Shown here: positions 43,912-62,402 of the stretch, piece after piece
How positions within the stretch are numbered: the stretch's first letter is position 1
How the letters are laid out: each line of letters begins with the position of its first letter
Origin: Patescibacteria group bacterium
GTDB lineage: Bacteria; Patescibacteriota; Patescibacteriia; UBA2591; JAQUPP01
Direction: 5' to 3'
Length of the DNA: 62,671 nt
NCBI GenBank assembly: GCA_041649955.1
Contig: JBAZMD010000004.1
Span: forward strand, 1 to 62,671
Translations under genes and position numbers: made by a program
The notes under the pieces: generated by a model
The model's input: only the letters and a program-made list of their open reading frames with translations
What the model was told of the DNA's origin: nothing
Databases searched by the model: none

Positions 43912-44622
43912 CTAAAATTTAAAATATTTTTCCCAATATTCGTAAAGTTTTTTTGTTGCTCTTAAATCACCGACATTATATTTGGCAATATCCAAGAATT
44001 TCTTTTCTTTAAATAAAGCGCTTACATCATCGCCGGTTACTCCATTGGCCTTGGGACTTTCAATATTAAATGCGCGGCTCCAAAGATGTAAACTTCCTTT
44101 TCGCCAAACAGCGCCGTAGAAAGAAAGCTGGTCAAACAAATCTATGTGTTTAGAATCATATTTTTGGCTTCCAAGATATCGGTTAGACATTAAATCTTTT
44201 GTCGGCAGAACATTATTAATCGCCGACCTGATCATTAAAAACGGCACATCAAATCCTCGGCCGTTGAAACTGATGAATTCTTGATAATTTTTTGCACCGT
44301 TCCAAAAATTTTCCAGCATTTCTTTTTCAGTCATTGGTTTGAATTTAATGCCGTTTTCTTCTGTTTCTTTAAGATTGGCATTTGGAGCTTGAAAACAAAC
44401 CGCCCCTTTATCTTTCTCACAATCTAAAACGCCAATTGCGACAATCTCGCCGGTTAGAGGCGAAAATCCAAGTCCTTGCTTTAAATCTTGCAGGGATTTT
44501 TCATATTCGTCATTATCTTTAGAATCTTTTTTAATTGATTTACTGAGAATTTCTTGAGTCGCGGCATCCATCTCATCAAAATTTTCTCCAATTGTTTCAA
44601 TATCAAAAACTAATTTAGACAT
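43912..44622 (-). CDS. DnaQ-fold 3'-5' exonuclease (PolB-exonuclease-like)
   Basis: Exo I FDIET, Exo II SFNGRGFDVPFL, Exo III YNVGD motifs. Confidence 0.75.
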   Translation of the reverse strand: MSKLVFDIETIGENFDEMDAATQEILSKSIKKDSKDNDEYEKSLQDLKQGLGFSPLTGEIVAIGVLDCEKDKGAVCFQAPNANLKETEENGIKFKPMTEKEMLENFWNGAKNYQEFISFNGRGFDVPFLMIRSAINNVLPTKDLMSNRYLGSQKYDSKHIDLFDQLSFYGAVWRKGSLHLWSRAFNIESPKANGVTGDDVSALFKEKKFLDIAKYNVGDLRATKKLYEYWEKYFKF

Positions 44623-44692
44623 AATTTGTAAAGCTATTTAAATTAATAAATATATATACCCCGTCTCGGTCTGGGACAGAGAACTATCAATC

Positions 44693-44721
44693 AGTGTAAG
44701 GGTTTTGGGGTAATTTATCAA
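44693..44721 (-). promoter_or_regulatory. promoter of the exonuclease gene
   Basis: Minus strand reads TTGATA, 17 nt, TACACT. Confidence 0.5.
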
Positions 44722-44791
44722 GAGCCGAACTGAGGCCTCTCGGTTAGGTTTAATTTTAATGGATTCAGGGTAAATTAAAAGATTTTAGTCG

Positions 44792-44871
44792 TGTCTCATT
44801 TTTTCTGGTTTTGTTCGTAAAATGAGACAAATGCGACAGTAGAAAGGGGGCAATTCTATGTGTCTCATTTT
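44792..44871. promoter_or_regulatory. three copies of TGTCTCATTTT (two direct, one inverted): operator-like sites
   Basis: Copies at 44792-44802, 44819-44829 (inverted; forms an 11-bp hairpin with the first) and 44861-44871, just upstream of the plus-strand promoter. Confidence 0.45.
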
Positions 44872-44891
44872 TAATTGTTGTGGATAAATTA

Positions 44892-44920
44892 TTGATAAAA
44901 TAGTTTATTTCGTCTATAAT
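44892..44920 (+). promoter_or_regulatory. strong plus-strand promoter firing antisense into the 66-aa gene
   Basis: TTGATA, 17 nt, TATAAT. Confidence 0.55.
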
Positions 44921-44961
44921 GAAAACGGGGCAGAAGCGCCCCAAGACCCAATAAAATTTCC

Positions 44962-45162
44962 TTATTGATTAATTAAATCATTAAGGGATTTTATTTTATG
45001 CTCCTCGAGAAATGTCCCAAGGTGCATGTCACTACGGACATTAAGATTGATGCCGTACTTCTCCTCAATAGTACCCATGTGGGTATCATCGCGTTTGTCA
45101 CGCAATTCTCCATCTTGGTTCCGTGAACGATATCCTTTCATGCCCGATGCATCCGTAGCCAT
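44962..45162 (-). CDS. small hydrophilic protein (66 aa)
   Basis: ORF followed by the hairpin ggggcgcttctgcccc plus a T-run on the minus strand. No motif recognised. Confidence 0.5.
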   Translation of the reverse strand: MATDASGMKGYRSRNQDGELRDKRDDTHMGTIEEKYGINLNVRSDMHLGTFLEEHKIKSLNDLINQ

Positions 45163-45296
45163 ATAATTATCATTTCTTATCTCTAAAAGAGATAAGTTAA
45201 ATTAAGGAAGGCTCGACGATTCCTTTCTCACCGCTTAAACGGCTAAATCTGTAAAAGACCGTATCACGACAAAAAGTATAATCGTCAAATGATGAT

Positions 45297-45320
45297 GGGG
45301 CGTGCCCCGTTTTCATTAAA
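45297..45320 (+). terminator. plus-strand hairpin plus T-run; mirror image of the one at 44917-44942
   Basis: ggggc-gt-gcccc followed by gttttcatta. The reverse complement of the same word (taatgaaaacggggc) occurs at 44917. Confidence 0.5.
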
Positions 45321-45375
45321 ATTATATAATTAGCACTCAAGTTAGTCAAGTGCTAATAACTAAAATTAATGTAAA

Positions 45376-46461
45376 TTATTTTTTAATTAATTTCAACAAA
45401 TCCTCTTCGCTTTCATAACCCTTTAATCTGCCCGATAATATTCCCAGTCTATAATTTATCCCCTCGCTCATTAATCGCCAATTGGTATCTAAGAGTATTT
45501 TTTTAATTAACCTTTGTAACTTTATTCGGCTATCATATTCAACCCGGCCTGATTTATTATCCTGGACCGTAAAATTAATAATTACATCTCTATTTATTTC
45601 TGGTTTAGAAAAATCTAATTTAAGATAATCATTTTTTTCAAGAACCGGAACCAAGAGTTTTTGTAGCTCAACAATAGTGAGCTTTTTTATTTTTACCAAT
45701 ATTTTTTGGGTTTTTTCTTTTTCTTTAAATTCTTTTAAAAATTTAGAAACATTTTCTAAGTTAATTTTTTGTTCAAGATATTTTTGACCTTCTTCATCTG
45801 ATAAACAAAATCTCTGGCGATCTCTTTTAAGATACGGGTCAATCTTCTTTGGTTGAAGTTTTTCATCTAAATTTAAAACCTCTTTTTCTTTGTGATGACA
45901 TTTGGGGCAGTTATAGACAGTAGTGATCTTATTCTTTTCTCTTGTATTTTTATCCCTCATCTCGGTTTTACACTTAGGACATCGGGTTGGTTTTAATCTC
46001 CATTCTTCACCATTATCCCAAAAAGCCCTGCGTTTATGACACTTCGGGCATTCAAAGAAAAATAATACTCTATCTTTGCTCTCATCAAGCTCTGTGTGTA
46101 AAGTTTTATCTATCACGGTCATAATTGAACCACAAATAAAACAAGAAATACTTTCTGGTGGTGGGGTATTTTTAAATCTTTCATCTCTTCGCCGGTCACG
46201 ATCTATCCATTTATTAATAGTTTCTGATTTTTTAGCGTAGCGTTCTCCTTTAACAAAATATAGGACAGTTGGAATAAAAACTTTTACCTTAAATTCTTTT
46301 TTAATTTTATTCTTTTTAGATTCACTGTCTTTAGTTGAAATCCAATCTTTGGATATACCACGTTTTTCCCAACTCCTACATTCTTCAATTGTAGAGTGGT
46401 CGTAGAGACCACGATAATACGGTTCGTCCTTAAGGTTTGTTTCTGTTTTTGTCTCGTCCAT
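45376..46461 (-). CDS. multi-zinc-ribbon protein (361 aa)
   Basis: Four CxxC pairs: CFIC, CPKC, CPKC, CPKC. Basic linker regions; the C-terminal half is unassigned. Confidence 0.6.
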   Translation of the reverse strand: MDETKTETNLKDEPYYRGLYDHSTIEECRSWEKRGISKDWISTKDSESKKNKIKKEFKVKVFIPTVLYFVKGERYAKKSETINKWIDRDRRRDERFKNTPPPESISCFICGSIMTVIDKTLHTELDESKDRVLFFFECPKCHKRRAFWDNGEEWRLKPTRCPKCKTEMRDKNTREKNKITTVYNCPKCHHKEKEVLNLDEKLQPKKIDPYLKRDRQRFCLSDEEGQKYLEQKINLENVSKFLKEFKEKEKTQKILVKIKKLTIVELQKLLVPVLEKNDYLKLDFSKPEINRDVIINFTVQDNKSGRVEYDSRIKLQRLIKKILLDTNWRLMSEGINYRLGILSGRLKGYESEEDLLKLIKK

Positions 46462-46582
46462 AAACGTTATTTTAAATTATAGGCTTAATAAAAGCAAGAA
46501 ATTCTACTAGCCAGGGCTGTCACATTTTCCATTTTTTGACGTCTTAAATAATAAGAGGGCAAAAAAAATAACTCCTTCCGTG

Positions 46583-46611
46583 TTGACAATATTTTTCTGT
46601 TTTGCTACACT
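46583..46611 (+). promoter_or_regulatory. promoter upstream of the ParB-methylase/TerS/TerL operon
   Basis: TTGACA, 17 nt, TACACT. Confidence 0.6.
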
Positions 46612-46709
46612 TTAAAAGTACGGTACTTTAGAACAATTTAATTAATCGATCCAATTATTCTTATTCAGTTATAAAAACTGGCGGGCCACGATGCCTGGCA
46701 TAGTTAAAG

Positions 46710-46783
46710 CCACTGGTAAGTATTGGAATAATCACCTAAATAGGTGAGTATTTCCAGTATTAACCAGTGGTTTTTTGGTTTTT
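46710..46783 (+). terminator. long-stem intrinsic terminator inside the operon leader
   Basis: ccactggtaagtattggaa / ttccagtattaaccagtgg (with G-U pairs), inner hairpin tcacctaaataggtga, then TTTTTTGGTTTTT. Confidence 0.65.
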
Positions 46784-46894
46784 AGTAAATACTCCGCTTT
46801 ATTTAGGGCAGGGTATTTTTATGTTTAAAAATAAACCACCACCTCAAAAAATTTAATAAAGAATTAAGTAACTTTTAATTTTAATTAAATTCAT

Positions 46895-48223
46895 ATGATC
46901 GATGTAACAAACAAACTTAATATCGTTTACGTTCCGATAAATTCTTTAAAGGCTGCAAATTATAATCCCAGAAAATGGGACCAAGCAGCCATTAAGAATT
47001 TAATTGAAAGCATAAAGAAATTCGGCATTGTTGATCCATTTTTAGTTAATAGCACTCCGGCCAGAAAAAATACTTTAATCGGCGGACACTTTAGATGGAA
47101 AATTGCCAAAGATTTAAAAATAGAAAGTGTACCGGTAGTATATATCAACATCCCGGATATTGAAAAAGAAAAAGAGCTGAACATTCGCTTGAATAAAAAT
47201 TTAGGCGATTGGGGTTGGGATTTGTTAGCGAATTTTGACGAAAAATTTCTGGCAGATATAGGGTTTTCATCTGAAACATTAGATCAAGTTTTTGGAATTG
47301 ATAATGACCCGGAAGTTTTCGACTTAGAGAAAGAACTAAAGAAACTTAGTATTGAAAAAGTTGAAGTTCAAAAAGGAGACATATACCAACTTGGACAGCA
47401 CCGGATGATGTGCGGAGATTCGACCATTGAATCCGACGTCTTAAAACTGATGGCCGGAGAGAAGGCGTCTCTTTGTCTGACCGACCCTCCGTATATATTA
47501 AATTATTTGAAGGGTAAGAAAAAACACGGTCAAGCCGCCACGGGATTCGGATATAAACGAGATCGGAGATATTTAGAAACAGATGAATTACCGCCCGACT
47601 TTACTGAAAAATGGATGGCAAATGTCTCCAAAGTTGCTAAACCCGATTTTTCCATTATCGTTTACGAGAATTGGAAAAACATCAGAACAATTTGGGGCGA
47701 GATGGAAAAATATTGGAAAGTTAAAAATATGTTGGTCTGGCATTTGCCGAATAGAACGCAGGGTTTTGCCGCAAAATACAAATTTTTTTCAAAGCATGAC
47801 ATCGCTATGGTCGGCGGTTCGGAAAAAATTGACTTAAACCTGAAATCCGAAACAGAATTACTGCAGAACGAATATGAAACGGCTTTGTTTGGAATTTCCG
47901 GCAAACCGCACTGGGAAGGATATGAAAAAGGAAAAAAGATTTGTCCAACAGACTTTATTGAATTTAAAGCGGATGATGCCAAACATTCTGGACAAGGAAT
48001 TATATTTGGCTGTAAACCAATAGAAATTCTTATCCCATACATTAAGGTTCTAACCGAAAGAAATGATTTAATTTTTGAACCCTATGGGGGAAGTGGAAGT
48101 CTGCTTATCAGTGCAACAAAAATGCAAAGACGTTGCAACTTAATGGAAAAAGTTCCTACGTACTGTGAAGTGATAAAGCGTCGCTGGGAAAAATTAACTG
48201 GTTTAAAAGCTAAAAAAATATGA
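46895..48223 (+). CDS. ParB-like nuclease domain fused to a DNA N6-adenine/N4-cytosine methyltransferase
   Basis: ParB-N motifs (YNPRKW, GGHFRW), then LTDPPY (motif IV) and a C-terminal EPYGGSGS (motif I). Confidence 0.8.
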   Translation: MIDVTNKLNIVYVPINSLKAANYNPRKWDQAAIKNLIESIKKFGIVDPFLVNSTPARKNTLIGGHFRWKIAKDLKIESVPVVYINIPDIEKEKELNIRLNKNLGDWGWDLLANFDEKFLADIGFSSETLDQVFGIDNDPEVFDLEKELKKLSIEKVEVQKGDIYQLGQHRMMCGDSTIESDVLKLMAGEKASLCLTDPPYILNYLKGKKKHGQAATGFGYKRDRRYLETDELPPDFTEKWMANVSKVAKPDFSIIVYENWKNIRTIWGEMEKYWKVKNMLVWHLPNRTQGFAAKYKFFSKHDIAMVGGSEKIDLNLKSETELLQNEYETALFGISGKPHWEGYEKGKKICPTDFIEFKADDAKHSGQGIIFGCKPIEILIPYIKVLTERNDLIFEPYGGSGSLLISATKMQRRCNLMEKVPTYCEVIKRRWEKLTGLKAKKI

Positions 48224-48618
48224 TCAGCGCCAAAGAAAAGAAATTATTATTGGAACATCTAAGTAAAACGCCGATCATAGAAATTGCCTGTAAACAAGCT
48301 GGCGTAAGCCGGGCAACGTATTACAGGCTGCGCAATAAAAGCGTGGATTTCAGAAAAGCGGCGGACTCAGCCATGGCAGAAGGAATTTTGCTGATTAATG
48401 ATATGAGTGAGGCCCAGGTTATTTCCTTAATCAAAGAAAAAAATTGGTCAGCTATAAGCTTCTGGTTAAAATCACATCATCATTCATACTCTGATAAGGT
48501 TGAGATCAGTAGGCGGATCACTGGCTCATTGGGAGAATTATCTCCAGAGGAAGAAAAAATTATCGCCGAAGCTATGAGACTAGCTTCAGGGGGCGCTATT
48601 AAAAAACAACGATTATGA
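48220..48618 (+). CDS. terminase small-subunit-like HTH protein
   Basis: ACKQAGVSRATYYRLRNK helix-turn-helix. ATGA coupling on both sides. Confidence 0.6.
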   Translation: MISAKEKKLLLEHLSKTPIIEIACKQAGVSRATYYRLRNKSVDFRKAADSAMAEGILLINDMSEAQVISLIKEKNWSAISFWLKSHHHSYSDKVEISRRITGSLGELSPEEEKIIAEAMRLASGGAIKKQRL

Positions 48619-49793
48619 AAATAGACGAAAAATACATCCAGAAAATCTGGGAAAATAAAAAGGTAAGACAATCCCTGGCCTTTAAGCATCCGCTTTGGTT
48701 TAGTCTCTTTTATCTCCGTCATCATTTCACTTATCCCTTGGCCCCTTTCCATTTGGAAATGTTTCACCTTATTAAGCATCAAGAATACGAGTTTATTGTT
48801 ATGATGGCTTTTCGCGGATCCGGCAAATCAACCATTATGAACATGTCCAATGTCCTCTGGTCTATTTTAGGCAAGCCGCAGAAAAAATTTGTCATTATTA
48901 TTAGTAAAACTCAGGAACAGGCTAAAAATCATTTCGCTAACATTAAGTCCGAGCTTGAAAATAATAAAGAATTAAAAGAGGATTTTGGCCCGTTTAAGGA
49001 AAGCCAAGACGCTTGGAATAGACTTTCTTTAGAGCTTGAATATCACGGCGCAAAAATTATATCGGCTACTCGAGATCAAAGTATCCGAGGATTAAGATAT
49101 AGACAGTTCAGGCCAGATCTTATTATCCTCGACGAAGCAGAAGACACCGATTTAACGGCTGATAATAATATAGACGGTAAGGCTTTCCTCCAAAAATTTC
49201 AAGACGAAATAATTCCTCTGGGCAGTAATAATACCAGAATTGTTGTTCTGGGTAATTTAATCTCCAAAGATTCTTTCATGATGCGATTGAAAGAAATAAT
49301 TGAGAAAAATAAGAATAATGGTATCTTTCGAGCTTATCCTCTTCTCGATGATAATTATGAAAATTTATGGCCGGATAAATTCTCAGATATTGAAATCATT
49401 GAGAAAATACGTGCTAAACTATCGAATCAAACATGGGCAAGAGAATATCTTTTAAGGCTCGATGGTCCGGACACACCAGATGACATTAAAGATGAACTGT
49501 CCGAACTTACAGTTGATTCGGAATTGGTAAAATTATCACATCAATATGAGAATGAATTATGTGATTCTAGGGTTCAACTCCCGTTGATAAAACAAATGAA
49601 AAAATTCAGTATCAGCGCTCCGAAAATTGAACCTGACCCCGAAATTATTATTCAGTCTGATGATCTGCGATATCCGATATATCAAAAATATTTGGAAGTG
49701 TCGAAAAAAATTAGCGATGAACTTGCCGCTTCTCTAAGAAAATTATTGGACGAGAGAAGAAAAAAATCTTCTGAGGGTTTAATCAGACATTAA
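48615..49793 (+). CDS. terminase large-subunit-like ATPase; the nuclease domain appears truncated or replaced
   Basis: PFHLEMF, Walker A FRGSGKST and Walker B LIILDEAED. Only 392 aa, with a low-complexity C-terminus. Confidence 0.65.
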   Translation: MKIDEKYIQKIWENKKVRQSLAFKHPLWFSLFYLRHHFTYPLAPFHLEMFHLIKHQEYEFIVMMAFRGSGKSTIMNMSNVLWSILGKPQKKFVIIISKTQEQAKNHFANIKSELENNKELKEDFGPFKESQDAWNRLSLELEYHGAKIISATRDQSIRGLRYRQFRPDLIILDEAEDTDLTADNNIDGKAFLQKFQDEIIPLGSNNTRIVVLGNLISKDSFMMRLKEIIEKNKNNGIFRAYPLLDDNYENLWPDKFSDIEIIEKIRAKLSNQTWAREYLLRLDGPDTPDDIKDELSELTVDSELVKLSHQYENELCDSRVQLPLIKQMKKFSISAPKIEPDPEIIIQSDDLRYPIYQKYLEVSKKISDELAASLRKLLDERRKKSSEGLIRH

Positions 49794-50230: not shown

Positions 50231-51169
50231 TTATTCAACTTTTTTCAAGACCCAATCAAAAAGTCCGGAGTTTATGGCTAATTCTGCAATCTTATCAGAA
50301 AAATATAAGTTTAGATTATCAACATCATTTATATATTTTTCTAAATCTCCTTGTGGCGTATGGGCCACATAAAAAAATCTGTCATAATCAGTCATTCTGG
50401 TAAATATTTTTTTATATTTATTAAATTCAGCTACATTGGTTTGACATTTTATTTGTACCACCGCTTTCTCTTCGGTAATGGGATGGAAAATAGCTAAATC
50501 TATTAATTTTGTGGTTTTACCCACCACCCCCAATCTTTGCCATCCGCCAGCTCTAAAAATAAGGTCAATTAAGAGCTCAAAATCTTTGGGATTAAGCTTC
50601 TTAATTAACAAAATTAGCCTGTCTTTTAGCTGGCCAAAAGATTCTTCGGCCTCTTTTATTTCTTTTGACTGTTCTCCGGTAATTTTTTTAATCAAATAAT
50701 CTTTTTCATGTACAGAACAAATCGTTCCCTTAAAACCTTGGGTTTTTGAAAGTTGACCGCTAATATTTTCTAAAAATAAGGTTTTACCTTTTAAATCCTG
50801 GCAAGACCACCTGCCAATTACTTTCCTAGCCCTACTTTTATCTTTTTGAACAAATACTTTTTTGTCGGAAAAACACCAATAGAGCTTATTATTATAAAAA
50901 GTTATCCACAAAACATTTTTATCTTCTTCATAAAAATATTTAATTTGAGTAGCATGAAAAGTAACCACTTGGTTTGAGAGGCCACGTTTCTTATGATAAT
51001 AATCCTTTATCTTCTGCCATTGGCCACAAGAACAAAGAGTATTATCAGCATCATTATAACCAATTTTCAAAATGTTTTTTTCTATACATTCTTTTTCAAA
51101 TTCTCCACCACGACCTAATTTAATGAAAAGAGCTTTCTCAACTTTATTTAATTTTTCTTTTATATTCAT
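50231..51169 (-). CDS. Mrr-type (PD-(D/E)xK) restriction endonuclease domain protein with an unassigned N-terminal domain
   Basis: C-terminal FELLIDLIFRAGGW...LIDLAIF...AVVQIKCQ matches the Mrr_cat D...(E/Q)xK layout. The N-terminal 190 aa are unassigned. Confidence 0.6.
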   Translation of the reverse strand: MNIKEKLNKVEKALFIKLGRGGEFEKECIEKNILKIGYNDADNTLCSCGQWQKIKDYYHKKRGLSNQVVTFHATQIKYFYEEDKNVLWITFYNNKLYWCFSDKKVFVQKDKSRARKVIGRWSCQDLKGKTLFLENISGQLSKTQGFKGTICSVHEKDYLIKKITGEQSKEIKEAEESFGQLKDRLILLIKKLNPKDFELLIDLIFRAGGWQRLGVVGKTTKLIDLAIFHPITEEKAVVQIKCQTNVAEFNKYKKIFTRMTDYDRFFYVAHTPQGDLEKYINDVDNLNLYFSDKIAELAINSGLFDWVLKKVE

Positions 51170-51360: not shown

Positions 51361-51441
51361 CAAATTAAATTGTTAACTTAAATATAGCATAAAAAACTAA
51401 AAAGTGAAACTTGAGTTACCTACAAGTTATCTACTCTAATT

Positions 51442-51472
51442 AAAAACGAGGTGCTATAAGCATCTCGTTTTT
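51442..51472. terminator. bidirectional terminator ending the orphan operon
   Basis: aaaaacgaggtgc...gcatctcgttttt. Confidence 0.75.
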
Positions 51473-51496
51473 AATAGATATTTTATGAAGATTGAA

Positions 51497-51694
51497 TCAT
51501 TTTTTAAGAATAGAAGCTATTAGTGCAACCACTGATAAAATTATTAAGACAATAAAAACGTTACTTATTTTTTTCGCAATTCCATTAACAACGTGGTCGC
51601 CCACGGTCTTCCAAAAATTTTTAGTAAAAAGAATACGTATTAACCATGAAACTAGTATGACTATAATTATTGCAATTAATATTTGACTTAGCAT
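51497..51694 (-). CDS. small 2-TM membrane protein (65 aa), last gene of the orphan operon
   Basis: MLSQILIAIIIVILVSWL...VFIVLIILSVVALIASILKK. The track ORF extends to 51793 but then overlaps the 980-aa gene. Confidence 0.45.
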   Translation of the reverse strand: MLSQILIAIIIVILVSWLIRILFTKNFWKTVGDHVVNGIAKKISNVFIVLIILSVVALIASILKK

Positions 51695-51743
51695 AAATTT
51701 ATATTTAATTACGTAGTTAAAACAAGTCGCCAGAAAAAATACT

Positions 51744-54686
51744 TTAATCAAGAATATCCTTAAGTCCCCAAAATGCGCTACTTCCTTTCTCAATAAGCGT
51801 ATTTATTAAATCTGTCACTTTTTGTTTTATCGTATTATCACCGTTTTTATAGATAGTCGTTAAGGCTTCTTTGATTTCAGTATGATGTATAAGAGGTGCA
51901 CGACGGTTCTGGATCAGATTGTTTTTTGAGTCAAGTAGATAGTTTGAAATAATTTCCAATGTCTTCCCCCCATTTTTTTCTGCAAAGGTAGGTAATCGCT
52001 TTAAAAGCCCATAGTCCCAATCAATCTCGCCGTTAGACTTTTTAAGCGTCTCTGCTATTTTCTCAACCACGATTTTATCATCTAATACTTCTATCTCTCG
52101 ATTTATCCAAAAACCAAAACCAGATAAAGCTTTTGGCTCTGAAACATTTTTCAAGGCCCAATTCCAAAATTTAATAAGTTTTTCCTTACTTACCTTATTT
52201 TCTTTTAACCATTTGTTTCCGGCTTGATCTCGTGTTAAGCAACTACGTCCGATAAACGATATAAATTCTTGGTGTCGGGTTGTGTTGGGAGTATTCCAGA
52301 ATTGTATAAATAAAGGATCGCTTATTTTTAAACCTAAGTGAGCAAAAGCAAGTGCGAGATGAATTGCCAAAGATTCATCAAGACCCTTTGAATATTTCCT
52401 TTGAGTGTAATCTTTAGGATCAAGCGTGATTGCGTGGCTATAGTAATCTTTAAGTTTAACGAATAACTTGTCGTATAAAGTATTTGATAGATAACCCTCC
52501 CATGACGCTAAGTAGGTATCTTTTTTATTCGGATCATCTTTGGGAAAAATCTCGAGAAAGAGACCAGCTATAAATTTTTTATCTCGAAAATAAAACGGTG
52601 CTAAATATCGGCCGATAACAAACCGGACAGCAAGAGAATCATCAGTAAGAGCCTTTTTATAAAATTCTTTAACATCATCTGCCAGGGTTTCCCCATCATT
52701 TTCGGTAAACACAACAAATGCTTCATAGGCTCGTCCCCGGACAGAATTAATGGCTATATGATATAGCTCACCATATTCTGGTTTTTCGTCTTCTTTTGAT
52801 GGACTATCTTTAATGGTAAACAAGTATGAAATCAAATTCTTGATTTTTTCTCTGTATTCTTTACGAACTTGCTCTTTCATTTCCTTGTTTTCCAAAATAT
52901 AAAGCAAAATATCTGCAATTACTTTATGGACAGTTACCCAATCGGCTAACCAAGACTTGTCATTTTTTCTTTTAAATGGTGTTTTCTCTCCCTCGTTTTT
53001 AATCACTTCGAATAGACCAAAGATCTGATTAATTTGATCAAAGGTTAATAATTGCTTATTGCGAAGCATTTCTTCAATGCCACGTAAAAGTGAATATAAA
53101 TAGTGAGGATGAATATCATCCCTATCAAAAAAAGAATTAATATTATTTAAATATTCCTCCGTTCTTTTTTTAATATCTTCTTTTAGGGCATCACCAAGGC
53201 CTTCAACGCCACGAGGATTTAAAAAATCATCATCTTTAAATTGCTCATTTAGCTTCTCTGCTGTCCATTTAGTTTTTAAATTCGCGACAATTTGATCAAT
53301 CATGAAATCATTAAGATTTACTGGGGACCTGTGTTGTACTGTACCACCTCTTATTTCGCCAATTGATGGTTCTGGTGTGTTATTAATTTTGTCTGGGGAA
53401 ATTCCAAATTTTCCCTCTGCCTGTTTTTTTTCATCGGGAGTAAGGTGATCCTTAATAAAACCGAGAATCTTTATACCATCTCGTTCTCTCCATTTTTTCT
53501 TATCTTTATCTTCAAGCTCCGATCCAAAATATTCAAACACTTTTTCAACATATTTTCTTTGTTCTGTTTTTGGATCAAGGACGCCAAAACCTCGAATTAA
53601 CGCTTGATGATATTCGGATCCGCTCTCAATCTCGAAATATCGCTCACCAACATCAAATACCTTAAAGAATGCATCTTGTAATTCTTTTTTAAATGTTTTT
53701 GGACACTGTGCCAGAGCGAACAATCTCAACCGCCACATTGAACGACATGAAGGCAGTTTATTAATATATTCAAATAATCTTTTTGCTTCATTAACATCAC
53801 CACATTTCTTGCCAATAGTTCTCTCAATTAACTTCTTAATAGTAGCGGCGAGATTTTTTACATCCTCTCGATATGAGACACTTCTCTTGTTCTGAATTTC
53901 AAGCGTGAAGAAATCAACATCAAATAAAGAGAAGAAATCTACATAATCAAAAACTTTTGTTTCGTTAAGTTCAGACAATTTTATAATCTCCGCCATTATG
54001 CCGGTAGTAATTTGAAGCGCTTTTTCTATGTAAGATTCATCGAGGTTCGTCAGTGCCTCAAAAATACCAGAATCATTTAAATCACTGATATAAAAAGGGT
54101 TATCCATACTACAGCCAATTTCTTTTTTCGCAATTTCTGTTTTGCTTCTTATGGTAAGAATGGCTTGAGCTAATTCTAAAATTGCATCGTCTTGTTTTTT
54201 CTCAACTAATTTCTTAATAATTTTTTCAAAGTCATAACCGGATTTGCGCAAATTTTTTATTAAGCAAACCCACTTTTCGTCTCTTATTTTAGCCGTGAGC
54301 ATTTTTATTTGTTCAGCTGGAAGCTTGTCTATGATCCACAAGAAGCGTTCAATAACCTCAGAATTAAACTTTTCTTTTTTGGTAGCAGTGTCTTTATCAA
54401 GTATAATTTCCGTAACCTTGGTGGGGTTTTTCTCGGCCATTCTTTCTAAATAATCAAGCCCTGAAATGCGATAAGAGCGTTGAGTAGAATTTTCTGCATT
54501 ATTTTTTATTTCATCAAGAAAACCTTCTTGCCAAAGCCAAGCGAGCCAAGATTCATCAGCTTGGGAGAAAAAAAATCGTTTAGCATCATCGTTTAAGAGT
54601 AAACCTCGAGCGACTTTAACGTCCGCAGATTCAACACCTGCTTTAAAAAATTCTTCTATTTTTTTATGTAATGCAAGTTGATTCAT
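51744..54686 (-). CDS. large hypothetical protein (980 aa), sequence pattern suggests a helical-repeat fold
   Basis: Uninterrupted 2.9-kb ORF. No Walker, nuclease, TIR/SIR2 or other catalytic motif found by eye. Confidence 0.75.
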   Translation of the reverse strand: MNQLALHKKIEEFFKAGVESADVKVARGLLLNDDAKRFFFSQADESWLAWLWQEGFLDEIKNNAENSTQRSYRISGLDYLERMAEKNPTKVTEIILDKDTATKKEKFNSEVIERFLWIIDKLPAEQIKMLTAKIRDEKWVCLIKNLRKSGYDFEKIIKKLVEKKQDDAILELAQAILTIRSKTEIAKKEIGCSMDNPFYISDLNDSGIFEALTNLDESYIEKALQITTGIMAEIIKLSELNETKVFDYVDFFSLFDVDFFTLEIQNKRSVSYREDVKNLAATIKKLIERTIGKKCGDVNEAKRLFEYINKLPSCRSMWRLRLFALAQCPKTFKKELQDAFFKVFDVGERYFEIESGSEYHQALIRGFGVLDPKTEQRKYVEKVFEYFGSELEDKDKKKWRERDGIKILGFIKDHLTPDEKKQAEGKFGISPDKINNTPEPSIGEIRGGTVQHRSPVNLNDFMIDQIVANLKTKWTAEKLNEQFKDDDFLNPRGVEGLGDALKEDIKKRTEEYLNNINSFFDRDDIHPHYLYSLLRGIEEMLRNKQLLTFDQINQIFGLFEVIKNEGEKTPFKRKNDKSWLADWVTVHKVIADILLYILENKEMKEQVRKEYREKIKNLISYLFTIKDSPSKEDEKPEYGELYHIAINSVRGRAYEAFVVFTENDGETLADDVKEFYKKALTDDSLAVRFVIGRYLAPFYFRDKKFIAGLFLEIFPKDDPNKKDTYLASWEGYLSNTLYDKLFVKLKDYYSHAITLDPKDYTQRKYSKGLDESLAIHLALAFAHLGLKISDPLFIQFWNTPNTTRHQEFISFIGRSCLTRDQAGNKWLKENKVSKEKLIKFWNWALKNVSEPKALSGFGFWINREIEVLDDKIVVEKIAETLKKSNGEIDWDYGLLKRLPTFAEKNGGKTLEIISNYLLDSKNNLIQNRRAPLIHHTEIKEALTTIYKNGDNTIKQKVTDLINTLIEKGSSAFWGLKDILD

Positions 54687-55329
54687 ATTTTATTTTTTTT
54701 TCATCATAAAGGAACTCTGAAAAAATTTTATAAAAATTAAACACAAAAATTATACAAAAGCTTTCAAAAATACTCTCAAATGTTTCAAGGTCAAGATATT
54801 TTTCAAATTGGTCTGGGATTTGAATTTCCTCTTTGTCTAAATCTTTAACCAATTTCGATATCTCTTGTGCCGCATTATAACTTCTCTCATAATTAAGATG
54901 AACAATCTCACTAAGGAAGTTTTTTATTTTTTTATTCAGATCAAGTCTTAAGGAAATGTCTGGTCTCTCCGTATCAATGTTTTTATACCACTTTGTTAAA
55001 CTCGTTGGGTCTATAAATATATAAATTTCCCGGAGATCTGCCGCTATATGTCGAATTGTGAAAGAATCCTTTGTTTCAAATTTTGTACCAAAAAGAGTTT
55101 GTGAGTTCAATATTAAATCCATTACATTTATTGTTTTTCCATTCGAACTCGCGTTCCATAGCAATTGTAAATATAGGGATACTGCTTTGATTATTCCTTT
55201 CTTAATTGTTGTGAATAATTCAGGCCTTTTTCCAACTAGAGTAGACTCTACATCTAAAGAATACCCTCGTTGCTTTTGCAAAACAGGATCAGTAGTTTTA
55301 TTAAGATTTTCTAAAACTTCATCTTCCAT
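54664..55329 (-). CDS. hypothetical protein (221 aa), overlaps the 980-aa gene start by 23 nt
   Basis: ORF only; the overlap suggests translational coupling. Confidence 0.65.
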   Translation of the reverse strand: MEDEVLENLNKTTDPVLQKQRGYSLDVESTLVGKRPELFTTIKKGIIKAVSLYLQLLWNASSNGKTINVMDLILNSQTLFGTKFETKDSFTIRHIAADLREIYIFIDPTSLTKWYKNIDTERPDISLRLDLNKKIKNFLSEIVHLNYERSYNAAQEISKLVKDLDKEEIQIPDQFEKYLDLETFESIFESFCIIFVFNFYKIFSEFLYDEKKIKYESTCIT

Positions 55330-55443
55330 ACTTAATAATTTCTAATTACTTCCTTTTTTTCATATATTAAACTATAGAGCTTATACATCAGCCTGTCTAT
55401 CTGATGTATAAGGTCACTAACCTTTGTTTTTCTTTCTATCCAA

Positions 55444-55647
55444 TTAAAAAGCCAGGATCTTTTGATTTAACCTAATTTTAGTTTTTAGAATAAGAAAAGT
55501 GCCAAAAATAAGATCAATCGTTGATAAAGTAAAAATCACTGGGTGATTTTCTATTTTATTCAATACGGGTAAAGTCAACTGATTAATAACTATCAGCGTT
55601 TGGTGTAAGAGTGTTGAAATAAAGTTGTCAGGTATAGGAATATACAT
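55444..55647 (-). CDS. possible small hydrophobic protein (67 aa)
   Basis: ORF only; no SD seen. Confidence 0.3.
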   Translation of the reverse strand: MYIPIPDNFISTLLHQTLIVINQLTLPVLNKIENHPVIFTLSTIDLIFGTFLILKTKIRLNQKILAF

Positions 55648-55691
55648 AAATTTACTTTACTAAGTATTTTATTAGCCAGGTAGTCAAGGGC

Positions 55692-56423
55692 TTATGGTTC
55701 ATAATACCAGCTATTATTTCCATAATTATAGACAAATCCCGTTGGAAGTTTTTTTTCAATTAACCTATCGGCCTCATCTTTAACTTCACATGAGATCCTT
55801 ATTTCTATTTTTTCTCTTTGTTTTGCTTTTTCTTTAACCCAATTAGGTATTCCTAATCCGGGTGCCATTATTTGAGAAAATGCATTAAGATTCCAGGCTT
55901 TAATTCCTCCATAATAACCTTCGGATACTTCTTCTACTTTATCGCCTGAGATAAACTTTATTTTTACATATGCTTTGTATTTCTTTGTTTCTTGATTTTG
56001 GATTACAAACCATACTTTCCAATCTTTCAAAAAGTCAAAATAAATCGTACCCGACAATACTGAGGCAATCTGATAACTTACCAACGCAGAATCATTTTTA
56101 TCAGCTACATTTTCACTCGTGGGCTGTAAAGTTTTTTGAGCTTCTTGTTCAATTAGTTTAACTTCGGCTCCTAACTTTTTATCTAGTAGTTTTTGATTCT
56201 GATACCATCTTCTTCCAGCCCATACCATAATCCAAATATTAATAATAAAAACCAGACTAAGTCCAATTACAAAACCAGGCCAAATATTTAATGCTAAGTT
56301 GCTAGAAATAAAAATTCCTATTCCACTTACCACAAACAAAATAGTCCCCAAAGACATTAAAAACTTATAGAAGTCATCATAAACTAATTTTGGTAATTCC
56401 ATGATATGTTTAAAAATTCTCAA
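55692..56423 (-). CDS. 3-TM membrane protein with a beta-rich C-terminal domain (243 aa)
   Basis: TTG start 11 nt after a GGAGGA SD. Hydrophobic helices lie between residues about 20 and 70. Confidence 0.6.
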   Translation of the reverse strand: MRIFKHIMELPKLVYDDFYKFLMSLGTILFVVSGIGIFISSNLALNIWPGFVIGLSLVFIINIWIMVWAGRRWYQNQKLLDKKLGAEVKLIEQEAQKTLQPTSENVADKNDSALVSYQIASVLSGTIYFDFLKDWKVWFVIQNQETKKYKAYVKIKFISGDKVEEVSEGYYGGIKAWNLNAFSQIMAPGLGIPNWVKEKAKQREKIEIRISCEVKDEADRLIEKKLPTGFVYNYGNNSWYYEP

Positions 56424-59218: not shown

Positions 59219-60910
59219 TTATTTTGTTACTTTGCAATAAAATACTCTTTCGGTATGACCCTGAGTATCGCTTTTACCAGTAGTGAATCCTTTATAATCT
59301 CTCTCAAAAACCTCAACTTCACCTCGTTCTCTTAAAATCTCCATGATTCTTTTGTCTGATATTTTAGCATTTGATCTTTCATTTTTCTTTTCCCCAGTAT
59401 TATTATAAGAGAGTAATATATGATTTGTTTGAACGTTCTTAATTAGGTCATGTAATATTTGATCCGCTCCTTTAAGGCAATACCTGCTTTTTAAGTGATT
59501 CCGTTCTATCATTTTCTTGGCGACGCCCTCAACTTTTGGTTTTTTCCAAGTAATTACATTTTCAAGTAGGTGATAGGCGTCTCCATACTGTCTGGAATTA
59601 TATGGTGGGTCAATATAAATAACATCGCATTTTATTTCTTTTACCAATTGATTAGCATCTTTTTGGTATATTTCATTGTTAATATTATTTTTAGGATTAA
59701 TATCTGGCACTAAAAGTTTTATATTTTGTAAAGTATCGAGCTTCTTTCTGTAAGCTTCGTAATGACCAACGGTGTTCGCTACTTTGTCTATCGCATAAAT
59801 CAAAGAAGTGAGTAAAACATTCTTTTCCTCCTGATTAATTTTTTTTGTTTTATCAAGTTTTTCAATTTTTTCTCTGATTGCCCCGATTTTTAAAGCATTT
59901 TCTTCGGTAAAATATGATCCACCAAAAATTTTAGACATGTAGTTTTCTTTTTTTGGATTTAGATCATTTAAATAATCAATAATGGCTGTTATTTTTTCTT
60001 TATTATAATTCTTTGTTTTCAACCAGCAGTGGAGAGAGATATAACTGCTATCTAAAATATCATTAGAAATAATTTTAGTGTCCGGCTGATTGAAATATCG
60101 TCCAACAACACCTGTTCCAGCAAAGATATCACAAAAAGTATAATAACCACGACATTTGTCTGCGACGATATCTCCTATAAAACCTAATAATTTTGTCTTA
60201 TTGCCCAAGAAACGCCTATTATGTATCTGGAGGAGTTGCTCAGTTTTTTGATTTTGAGGAAACATAAATAATGGAAGCTGAGCAGGTTTTGGTAATGGAT
60301 CAAAACGGCTTCGGAATACACCAGTGACCTTGCCCCTAATTTGTACATCTTTTACAAGGATTGGTTTATAAGATTGATTAGCTGGTTGTAACCTAAACTG
60401 ATTCTTTTCTTTATAAATTCTCTTTAGCGTTGCCTCATTGTCATTGACAATAGCAACACCAATTTCACCGTTGTCTACTATGGGTTGTTCTCGGACGATT
60501 ACTGTGTCGCTATCAAAAATACCATCATCTTGCATGCTATCTCCTCGAACTTTTAGGGCGTAGTGTCGGCCTTGTCCAAGTGTCAATTCTTTTGGTATTG
60601 AGATTGTTTCCGGAATTTCTATTGCTTCTATTGGTTCGCCGGCTGCTATTATCCCAAGCAGGGGAATTTCTATAAAATTATAGTTTTTTTTTGGTTCAGA
60701 ATTAATTTCAATAGCTCTGGCCAAATTATCAAATTTTTTTATATACCCTTTATTAATTAGGGCGTTGATATGCTGATGAACAGTAGACACAGCAGATAGC
60801 TTGAGTCTTTTTTTTATTTCCTCAAGAGTAGGCGAATAACCCTTTTCATTAATAAATTTTTTGATGAAATCCAAGGCCTCTTTTTGTCTTTTTGTTATTG
60901 GAATAGGCAT
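59219..60910 (-). CDS. LexA (winged HTH + S24 self-cleaving domain) fused to an alpha-class (D12/Dam-like) N6-adenine DNA methyltransferase
   Basis: LexA N-domain GYSPTLEEI..VSTVHQHINALINKGYI; cleavage site AAGEP; GDSM serine and TLKR lysine. Then FLGNKTKLL, FAGTG (motif I) and YIDPPYNS (motif IV). Confidence 0.8.
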   Translation of the reverse strand: MPIPITKRQKEALDFIKKFINEKGYSPTLEEIKKRLKLSAVSTVHQHINALINKGYIKKFDNLARAIEINSEPKKNYNFIEIPLLGIIAAGEPIEAIEIPETISIPKELTLGQGRHYALKVRGDSMQDDGIFDSDTVIVREQPIVDNGEIGVAIVNDNEATLKRIYKEKNQFRLQPANQSYKPILVKDVQIRGKVTGVFRSRFDPLPKPAQLPLFMFPQNQKTEQLLQIHNRRFLGNKTKLLGFIGDIVADKCRGYYTFCDIFAGTGVVGRYFNQPDTKIISNDILDSSYISLHCWLKTKNYNKEKITAIIDYLNDLNPKKENYMSKIFGGSYFTEENALKIGAIREKIEKLDKTKKINQEEKNVLLTSLIYAIDKVANTVGHYEAYRKKLDTLQNIKLLVPDINPKNNINNEIYQKDANQLVKEIKCDVIYIDPPYNSRQYGDAYHLLENVITWKKPKVEGVAKKMIERNHLKSRYCLKGADQILHDLIKNVQTNHILLSYNNTGEKKNERSNAKISDKRIMEILRERGEVEVFERDYKGFTTGKSDTQGHTERVFYCKVTK

Positions 60911-61085: not shown

Positions 61086-62402
61086 ATGGAACAAACAACA
61101 AAAATAAGGGTTGGACAACTGACTCAAGCACCGGCAGTAGTAATCAAGTATTGTCTCTATGCTCGCAAGTCGACCGAGCAAGATGATATGCAGGCACTTT
61201 CCATTGATTCACAGATTAAAGAGATGACAGAGATCGCCCAGCGGGATAATTTGCAAGTGGTAGAGATTAAGCGCGAATCCCATTCGTCCAAAGCAGTGGG
61301 CCAAAGGCCAGTCTTTAATCAGATGATTAGTGAACTCAAAGAGGGTAAATTCAATGCCATTCTAACATGGGCCCCTGATCGGTTAAGTAGAAACGCTGGA
61401 GACTTAGGATCCTTAGTTGATTTAATGGATCAGGGAGTACTAATAGAAATTAAAACTTATAGTCAGAAATTCACCAACAACCCAAATGAGAAGTTTTTGC
61501 TGATGATTTTAGGCAGTAATGCTAAATTAGAAAACGACAATAAATCAGTTAATGTTAAGCGAGGACTTAAGGCTAAGTGCGAGATGGGTTGGAAACCATC
61601 TATTCCACCCACGGGCTATTTAATGGAAAATCATATTGATAAACGAGGCCAAATTAGATTGGACCCTAAAAGATCGGTTATTATAAAACAGGTGTTTGAA
61701 AAAATTGTTTACGAAAACTGGAGTGGCAGAAAAACATATCATTGGCTATTAGAGATTGGTTTCAAAACTAAAAATGGTAAACGTCTATCGTTGGGTAACG
61801 TCTATATTCTACTTCGAAATACTTTCTATTATGGCGAGTTTGAGTTTCCGGCCAATAGCGGCCATTGGTATCAAGGTAAACACATGCCAATTATTACCAA
61901 AGAAATATTTGATAAAGTTCAAGAAGCCTTAGACCAGAATTATGTACCCAAAACAGAGAGCAAAGAATTCGCTTTTACTAAACTCATTAAATGTGGCTAT
62001 TGCGGATCGGGTATTACCGCTGACGAAAAATTTAAGAAATTAAAAGATGGCGGAGTCAATCGCCATGTTTATTATCGGTGTACCAAGGTTAAGAATATCG
62101 ATTGCAAAAATCAAGCTATTAACGAGCAAGATCTAATCAAAGAATTAATTGAAATGATCGATAAAATTAATCTTGATGAATTGGGTATTAAAACAAAAAT
62201 TGAAGATGAAATGATCAGATACAATAAATTTCAAATGGGCGTCTTGGGGACAATCAATAAGATTAAAATGAATACCGAAATCAACACTAGGAATTATGCC
62301 AAATACATTCTCAAAGAGGGATCACTGATTGAAAAGAGAGAATTACTGTCTTGTCTACAAAGTAAATTAATATTAAAAGACAAAAAGATTTGTGTAGAAT
62401 AA
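61086..62402 (+). CDS. large serine recombinase
   Basis: YARKSTEQDD catalytic-serine motif, DRLSRN, recombinase domain, and the zinc ribbon CGYCG...YYRCTK. Confidence 0.85.
   Translation: MEQTTKIRVGQLTQAPAVVIKYCLYARKSTEQDDMQALSIDSQIKEMTEIAQRDNLQVVEIKRESHSSKAVGQRPVFNQMISELKEGKFNAILTWAPDRLSRNAGDLGSLVDLMDQGVLIEIKTYSQKFTNNPNEKFLLMILGSNAKLENDNKSVNVKRGLKAKCEMGWKPSIPPTGYLMENHIDKRGQIRLDPKRSVIIKQVFEKIVYENWSGRKTYHWLLEIGFKTKNGKRLSLGNVYILLRNTFYYGEFEFPANSGHWYQGKHMPIITKEIFDKVQEALDQNYVPKTESKEFAFTKLIKCGYCGSGITADEKFKKLKDGGVNRHVYYRCTKVKNIDCKNQAINEQDLIKELIEMIDKINLDELGIKTKIEDEMIRYNKFQMGVLGTINKIKMNTEINTRNYAKYILKEGSLIEKRELLSCLQSKLILKDKKICVE

Follow-up and report, generated by a model that had tools for sequence, protein, structure and literature searches.

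In DSR2, a SIR2 domain is combined with an alpha-solenoid C-terminal domain, and the latter senses the phage tail tube protein. Dsr1 is reportedly the defence-associated sirtuin 1 that Garb et al. described in 2022. Avs7 and Dsr1 have a two-lobed TPR sensor in common, and the phage major capsid protein triggers both of them (PMC12803255, a bioRxiv preprint from 2026). The same sensor is also found in proteins that lack a STAND NTPase, where it follows a variety of N-terminal effectors, listed as NADases, nucleases, kinases, an HEPN-like RNase, transmembrane domains and "unknown" domains (PMC12803255). Some of the sensor proteins are split, and adjacent genes were analyzed too; defence is lost when the N-terminal effector is disrupted (PMC12803255). 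Here, we analyze a pair of genes, coding for proteins of 221 and 980 residues, from a patescibacterial contig of 62,671 nucleotides (GenBank assembly GCA_041649955.1, contig JBAZMD010000004.1). This whole stretch is referred to as the window. We consider it likely, if far from certain, that the locus encodes a single-protein anti-phage system of the Dsr1/Avs7-sensor class in a form with two polypeptides. What is known is this sensor class; what is uncharacterized is the N-terminal module, which is found in a large, mostly patescibacterial clade. The genes concerned are as follows.

54664-55329, minus strand, open reading frame (ORF): gene for the 221-residue protein (N-terminal module)
51744-54686, minus strand, ORF: gene for the 980-residue protein (alpha-solenoid sensor)
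51497-51694, minus strand, ORF: 65-residue protein, ATG start, two hydrophobic segments

The first two genes share 23 nucleotides, and a gap of 49 nucleotides separates the second from the 65-residue ORF. A first-pass annotation, made from the sequence alone, had described three tightly packed, co-directional genes with a 23-nucleotide overlap and a gap of less than 50 nucleotides, and these details, including the coordinates, were borne out.

The 980-residue protein is a stand-alone, two-lobed alpha-solenoid sensor that is homologous to the Dsr1/Avs7 sensor. The Dsr1 model from PADLOC (PDLC04166) matches residues 476-968 with profile positions 750-1213 of 1227 (E 7.8e-26, searched with the whole protein). 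When the C-terminal half is used alone, the match persists (E 2e-23, profile positions 754-1213 of 1227). No PADLOC model matched the N-terminal half. The Dsr1 model was also found in 12 of 35 family members and in the distant members P0193 and P0145. A tblastn search of the C-terminal half against plasmids returned one hypothetical protein from Legionella and several haloarchaeal genes annotated as "AAA family ATPase". The ATPase from Halapricum has 1363 residues, with AAA_16 at residues 30-154 and one TPR, and from this architecture we infer that it is Avs7. An alignment of the family profile with this protein by hhalign has a probability of 99.0% (E 2.5e-18) and extends over 695 columns, with query positions 81-846 corresponding to template positions 480-1221. 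Therefore, nearly the full length of the 980-residue protein is equivalent to the sensor region in an Avs-like ATPase.

The AlphaFold2 model of the 980-residue protein is all-helical (mean predicted local distance difference test score, pLDDT, 89.7; predicted template modelling score, pTM, 0.60). It consists of two helical lobes (about residues 1-427 and 463-980), between which lies a non-helical linker of low confidence (about residues 428-462, with a low-confidence core at 443-448). A Foldseek search of this model against PDB returned only generic HEAT/ARM solenoids (karyopherins, SF3B1, CAND1) with template modelling scores of 0.2-0.3. Searches of PDB sequences by phmmer and by profiles, using the 980-residue and 221-residue proteins and their alignments, gave no relative. 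Neither Pfam nor PADLOC assigned a SIR2 or NTPase domain to the 980-residue protein. A P-loop was considered and rejected; the only Walker-A-like string, AEKNGGKT, shows no conservation in the family consensus. The helical nature of the large protein and its role as a sensor had both been proposed in the first-pass annotation; the former agrees with the structure model, and the latter is supported by the homology to the Dsr1/Avs7 sensor (PADLOC, hhalign). A lack of known motifs had also been noted. This is correct for Pfam, NCBIfam and PHROGs, in which no family scored above the threshold for the 221-residue, the 980-residue or the 65-residue protein, but it does not extend to PADLOC, with the Dsr1 model matching the 980-residue protein.

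The protein family is large, and the label "orphan", which the operon had initially been given, has to be dropped. A word-indexed search returned 232 homologues of the 980-residue protein. A profile search of 1.84 billion cluster representatives returned 2441 matches at E<=1e-3 and 440 at E<=1e-30, the latter counted as representatives at 50% identity. In this set of 440, the family is nearly all patescibacterial. One scan of the GTDB species genomes gave 74 loci, nearly all of them from Patescibacteria, with a few from Omnitrophota, Aminicenantia and others. Only 2 loci were found in 2.9 million viral contigs and no PHROG matched. Thus, this is a cellular gene, and a structural role in phages was rejected.

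The homologues fall into two length classes, one of about 980 residues and the other of 1150-1200 residues. Among the close homologues, 41 have at least 1100 residues (1113-1196) and carry an N-terminal extension of 170-215 residues, while about 75 have about 980 residues. The motifs NPDWMxQxAHSxREILY and [FL][ST]x[IL]xHH are present in the extension of all 55 fused representatives that were inspected. In the split loci, an abutting upstream gene on the same strand is nearly always found; it codes for 115-355 residues and is mostly separated from, or overlaps with, the sensor gene by a few nucleotides. Overall, about a third to 40% of the homologues have module and sensor in one protein; in the others, the abutting upstream gene codes for the module. 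The 221-residue protein has only 13 close relatives, and a direct comparison of its family with the fused N-domains by hhalign was not significant. BLASTP, however, directly matches the 221-residue protein to the N-terminal extensions of the fused proteins P0230 (E 4.9e-9) and P0227 (E 1.6e-6), and a single BLAST-linked cluster (E<1e-4) takes in 165 of 175 N-modules. It is from these direct and transitive links that we read the 221-residue gene as the detached N-terminal domain of the large protein. By its sequence relationships, the 221-residue protein is the sensor's own N-terminal module, encoded separately in the window. It had initially been taken for an adaptor and thus for a component of its own, which does not agree with the fusion of the same module to the sensor in many homologues. 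A profile search with a mixed alignment of N-domains added only nine fragments, and a tblastn search of two N-modules against plasmids gave no match. The fused protein P0193 (1313 residues) has two tandem copies of the N-module in front of the sensor.

In an alignment of 114 N-modules (numbering as in the window), Arg100 and His144 are invariant; Ala96 is conserved to 93%, Glu/Asp101 to 97% and His145 to 82%. The AlphaFold2 model of the 221-residue protein is a bundle of about seven helices (mean pLDDT 75.6, pTM 0.75), with residues 1-30 and 208-221 predicted to be disordered. Arg100 and Glu101 are located at the end of helix 89-103, and His144 directly follows helix 123-143. Nothing significant was found for the module in Pfam, PADLOC, NCBIfam, PHROGs and PDB sequences, and Foldseek searches of the model against PDB and BFVD gave no match below E 0.3. 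Neither Pfam nor PADLOC detected a SIR2 domain in the 221-residue protein, in the 980-residue protein or in the fused homologues. We considered an HEPN RNase and rejected it. Arg100 and His144 are 44 residues apart, and there is no conserved Arg 4-6 residues before His144 (Rx4-6H). Also, no HEPN family matches, and no HEPN structure is among the significant Foldseek matches. The "DUF29" link in the HEPN paper actually refers to DUF294_C. Pfam matches to TAFH, DUF29 and pP_pnuc_1 were disregarded, being below the threshold and restricted to 2-3 of 16 members.

The sensor and its N-module differ strongly in their conservation. There are 165 pairs of loci with sensors that are at least 60% identical over more than 800 residues. 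In only 47 of these pairs are the N-modules related by BLASTP, with a median identity of 32%. Compared with locus L015 (related loci are numbered with the prefix L), the sensor from the window is 75% identical, and a relation between the N-modules is undetectable; compared with L023, the sensor is 70% and the N-module 77% identical. Therefore, either the loci exchange their N-modules or the N-module evolves at a much higher rate than the sensor. Usually, it is the sensors that are seen as fast-evolving; here, the sensor is kept and the N-module varies. In addition, two alternative types of module occur upstream of the sensor. The first has 345-355 residues and is found in three genomes, in L022 (4950-5999), L035 and L057. 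It has the invariant motifs VHxxMHGD..G..CLE and SxCYSGGG, which, read from the motifs alone, make it an unconfirmed candidate for a caspase/CHAT-like His/Cys dyad. There is no Pfam match on record for this module and no match among the PDB sequences. The second type (L046, L048, L069, L070 and L084) has 204-239 residues and an N-terminal transmembrane helix, and it forms a BLAST cluster of its own.

These data also bear on a reading without any immune function, in which the protein is a Patescibacteria-specific helical scaffold with a cellular role that ended up in variable regions by chance. The generic HEAT/ARM solenoids returned by Foldseek, with their low scores, and the lack of a recognized catalytic domain are what would be expected from such a scaffold. 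Yet the protein is specifically homologous, in sequence, to the Dsr1 model and the sensor region of the AAA_16 ATPase. Furthermore, restriction genes, AbiE, Mrr and recombinases are found as neighbours, the flanking genes differ at nearly every locus, which suggests mobility, and module shuffling is typical of conflict systems. We regard a purely cellular role as extremely unlikely.

The pair resembles Dsr1 in several respects. The approximately 490 C-terminal residues of the 980-residue protein match the last 460 or so positions of the Dsr1 model, a small N-terminal module precedes a helical sensor of about 1000 residues, and the location is in a defence island. In contrast to Dsr1, there is no SIR2 NADase, and the N-terminal module is an unrelated helical bundle. 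Also, the window has two genes (221 and 980 residues) instead of a single polypeptide of about 1200 residues, the N-terminal lobe of the sensor has no match to the Dsr1 model, and nearly all hosts belong to the Patescibacteria. Because a SIR2 domain is lacking, the pair is not Dsr1. With Avs7, the pair shares the two-lobed helical-repeat sensor, about 700 columns being aligned with an AAA_16 ATPase of Avs-like architecture. The pair lacks, however, a STAND/NOD NTPase module (no NTPase family matched) and for this reason is not Avs7. The general logic of an N-terminal effector joined to a large helical-repeat sensor is also that of DSR2, the sensor of which binds a phage structural protein directly. 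The effector is a different one, though, and there was no sequence or Foldseek match to DSR2 among the top matches. The STAND-less proteins with the Avs7/Dsr1 sensor (PMC12803255) are similar in having the sensor preceded by an N-terminal module, sometimes in split form; by this likeness, the 221-residue protein might be the effector.

Indirect evidence favours the 221-residue module as the effector or output component. It sits where Dsr1 and Avs7 carry their effectors, it has invariant residues of a charged or catalytic type, and, in a few loci, its place ahead of the same sensor is taken by other modules. The invariant Arg-Glu and His(-His) suggest an enzyme. The most likely function of the pair would be a defence that is triggered by a phage protein, with the sensor activating the small module. 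The 221-residue protein, made from an overlapping and translationally coupled gene, would presumably dock on the 980-residue sensor. Late in infection, the sensor would bind a conserved phage protein (the major capsid protein in the case of Dsr1 and Avs7). Binding would alter the conformation or the oligomeric state of the sensor and thereby switch on the N-terminal module, and either the infected cell or the replication of the phage would be arrested as a result. We infer the trigger, the docking, the effector role of the 221-residue protein and the outcome by comparison with the described systems, whereas the sensor homology, the occurrence of the two genes in split and fused form, the defence-island setting and the lack of conservation of the third gene come directly from the data.

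Several points weigh against a Dsr1/Avs7-type system with its own effector. The Dsr1 model matches the C-terminal lobe only and misses 23 of the 35 family members; among close relatives, the misses are probably due to the speed filters of HMMER. The proposed trigger is extrapolated from proteobacterial proteins with about 20-25% identity. As no enzyme fold or family is matched by the 221-residue module, it could act as an adaptor or in regulation and need not be an effector. Finally, the frequent operon-like position behind restriction genes could mean functional coupling. Going one step further than the class assignment, and only as a tentative proposal that we would not call probable, the module of about 200 residues (NPDWMxQxAHSxRE...[LI]xHH, in which one Arg and one His are invariant) might be an unrecognized effector domain. 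It would belong to a Patescibacteria-wide, capsid-sensing receptor of the Dsr1/Avs7 type and would be an exchangeable cassette ahead of a much better conserved sensor, as would the less common alternatives that are caspase-like (His/Cys) or anchored by a transmembrane helix. The first-pass annotation had called the operon a candidate for a new module and had named the recovery of a known domain or system by profile search as a finding that would refute this. The Dsr1 model of PADLOC is such a finding, and the system is not wholly new.

Patescibacteria have tiny, compact genomes. To our knowledge, few defences beyond restriction-modification are recognized in them. If the assignment to the Dsr1/Avs7-sensor class is true, a widespread sensor that directly detects a phage protein would be added to their defences, and if the small module is the effector, it would represent a new domain class. 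There are also consequences for genome annotation. Pfam, NCBIfam and PHROGs are blind to these proteins, the Dsr1 model finds only about one-third of the family, and the split forms resemble two hypothetical genes.

The 65-residue ORF is not a conserved component of the pair. Judged by the layout, it would belong to the same transcription unit, and an independent gene caller likewise predicted it, on a second contig. Its two hydrophobic segments are those of the small protein with two transmembrane helices that had been described initially. A model with three parts had been built on it, in which a large sensor or scaffold and a 221-residue adaptor are joined by this ORF as a small membrane effector of abortive infection. 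The position of the ORF 49 nucleotides downstream and before a terminator, and its recognition by a gene caller, agree with this model, as do the few loci with a transmembrane-anchored module in the upstream position. Moreover, small transmembrane ORFs directly follow the sensor in 5 of the 28 loci in which a gene lies close downstream; the background is 6.2% (p = 0.027). This enrichment is suggestive but weak, and AT-rich DNA readily yields small hydrophobic ORFs. A tblastn search found no counterpart of the 65-residue ORF in L001-L009, even though L001, L002, L006 and L007 have the same type of N-module as the window. Unrelated genes are located downstream of the sensor in L023 and L032, which also have the module type of the window. 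When the genes directly downstream of the sensor were clustered by BLAST, 25 were singletons, with one cluster of six and one of two. Also, fused single-gene homologues exist that have no transmembrane partner. Given the tblastn result and the heterogeneous downstream genes, the trio that was initially proposed as a unit was not seen together elsewhere, and we consider the model with three parts very improbable.

Small transmembrane ORFs directly behind the sensor gene were noted in L042, L043, L048, L079 and L081. They have 81-131 residues and 2-3 transmembrane segments and begin 2-13 nucleotides after the sensor gene. Those from L043 and L048 have a common motif, RK[WL]GIAG, before the second transmembrane segment, and those from L079 and L081 are homologous to each other. 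None of the five is related to the 65-residue ORF from the window.

The loci are located in defence islands. In the window, an AlwI-type restriction operon, headed by a LexA-S24-Dam methylase fusion and followed by two small genes, lies on the upstream side of the pair, and an Mrr-type nuclease is encoded downstream. A serine recombinase is located at one end of this region, with terminase-like and ParB-methylase genes beyond the other end. In related loci, the preceding genes are type III-like Mod and Res, a PLD-SNF2 helicase with an MmeI-like methylase, TaqI with a LexA-methylase fusion, AbiE or a Schlafen-like helicase. The 58 non-redundant upstream neighbours include ResIII (8) and Eco57I/N6_Mtase (6); other matches are to N6_N4 methylases, GmrSD, Vsr, HNH, DpnII, type ISP and serine recombinases. 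That the setting looks like one for defence genes had been recognized from the window alone, and the restriction-modification genes and recombinases that adjoin the loci of the family support it.

Such neighbours might indicate that the pair is an accessory of the adjacent restriction-modification system and that its sensor, devoid of an effector of its own, licenses or modulates the neighbouring nuclease, helicase or methylase. In many loci, a same-strand gene for a ResIII helicase or an MmeI/Eco57I-like methylase ends only 0-20 nucleotides before the pair or the fused gene, and a 221-residue module without a recognizable enzyme fold would fit an accessory. However, short gaps say little in genomes as compact as those of Patescibacteria. 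The type of partner differs by locus (AlwI in the window; TaqI, type III-like, PLD-SNF2 with an MmeI-like methylase, DpnII or GmrSD elsewhere), and in L014, L040, L061 and L080 the upstream gene is divergent or not related to restriction. In the window, a promoter-like site and a palindrome separate the restriction genes from the pair. As the restriction partners are of different types, and in some loci are divergent or missing altogether, we read the neighbourhood as defence-island clustering and not as one fixed multi-gene system. An accessory function is, in our view, rather unlikely. Three signals flank the genes in the window.

55380-55412, upstream of the 221-residue gene: perfect 12-bp inverted repeat CTTATACATCAG-N9-CTGATGTATAAG with a 9-nucleotide loop
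55399-55371, minus strand: promoter-like TAGACA-17-TATAGT, by consensus match only, overlapped by the palindrome at 55380-55412
51439-51475, downstream: stem-loop with a flanking A-run and T-run, resembling an intrinsic terminator on both strands

An upstream hairpin, a promoter-like stretch and a bidirectional terminator had already been pointed out, and all three were located again in the sequence. The palindrome occurs only once in the window. Its loop holds the -35-like hexamer of the predicted promoter of the 221-residue gene. The palindrome might act as an operator or might terminate the genes lying upstream, and of the two an operator may be the better reading.

The overlap between the genes for the 221-residue and the 980-residue protein goes back to a homopolymer, which was recognized by comparison with relatives.

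54693-54701, minus strand: A9 run at the junction of the 221-residue and 980-residue genes

At this position, the relatives have a stop codon, followed by a gap of 3 nucleotides and an ATG. With A8 instead of A9, the window would read ...EKK-stop-AAT-ATG, which matches L001, where the 221-residue gene stops 3 nucleotides before the next ATG. The overlap of 23 nucleotides thus results from the A9 run, which displaces the ancestral stop codon of the 221-residue gene. Because A9 is present in place of the stop codon of the relatives, the last nine or so residues of the 221-residue protein are an add-on. A9 is also present in a second contig from another assembly (L091).

Some observations concern the genes around the pair. 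The protein that heads the AlwI operon (59219-60910, minus strand, 563 residues) combines a LexA DNA-binding domain, a self-cleaving S24 peptidase and a Dam-type methylase. A similar LexA-S24-methylase fusion is encoded in L014 (6378-7907) beside a TaqI-type nuclease and adjoins a fused homologue. These fusions hint that restriction-modification may be controlled in response to DNA damage. In the interval that separates the restriction operon from the pair (55444-56423, minus strand), a 243-residue protein with N-terminal transmembrane helices and a hydrophobic ORF of 67 residues are encoded; neither has a family match, and neither was found in the related loci. The Mrr_cat protein downstream of the pair (50231-51169, minus strand, 312 residues) weakly matches the PADLOC candidate system PDC-S02 (E 5e-8), and in L012, an Mrr-type gene is likewise found after the fused homologue. 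Further out, at 43912-49793 and 61086-62402, a ParB-N6/N4 methylase fusion, genes resembling the small and large terminase subunits, a PolB-type exonuclease and a serine recombinase are encoded. The gene resembling the large terminase subunit codes for only 392 residues. This gene content suggests that the defence genes from the window may be carried on the remnant of a prophage or satellite.

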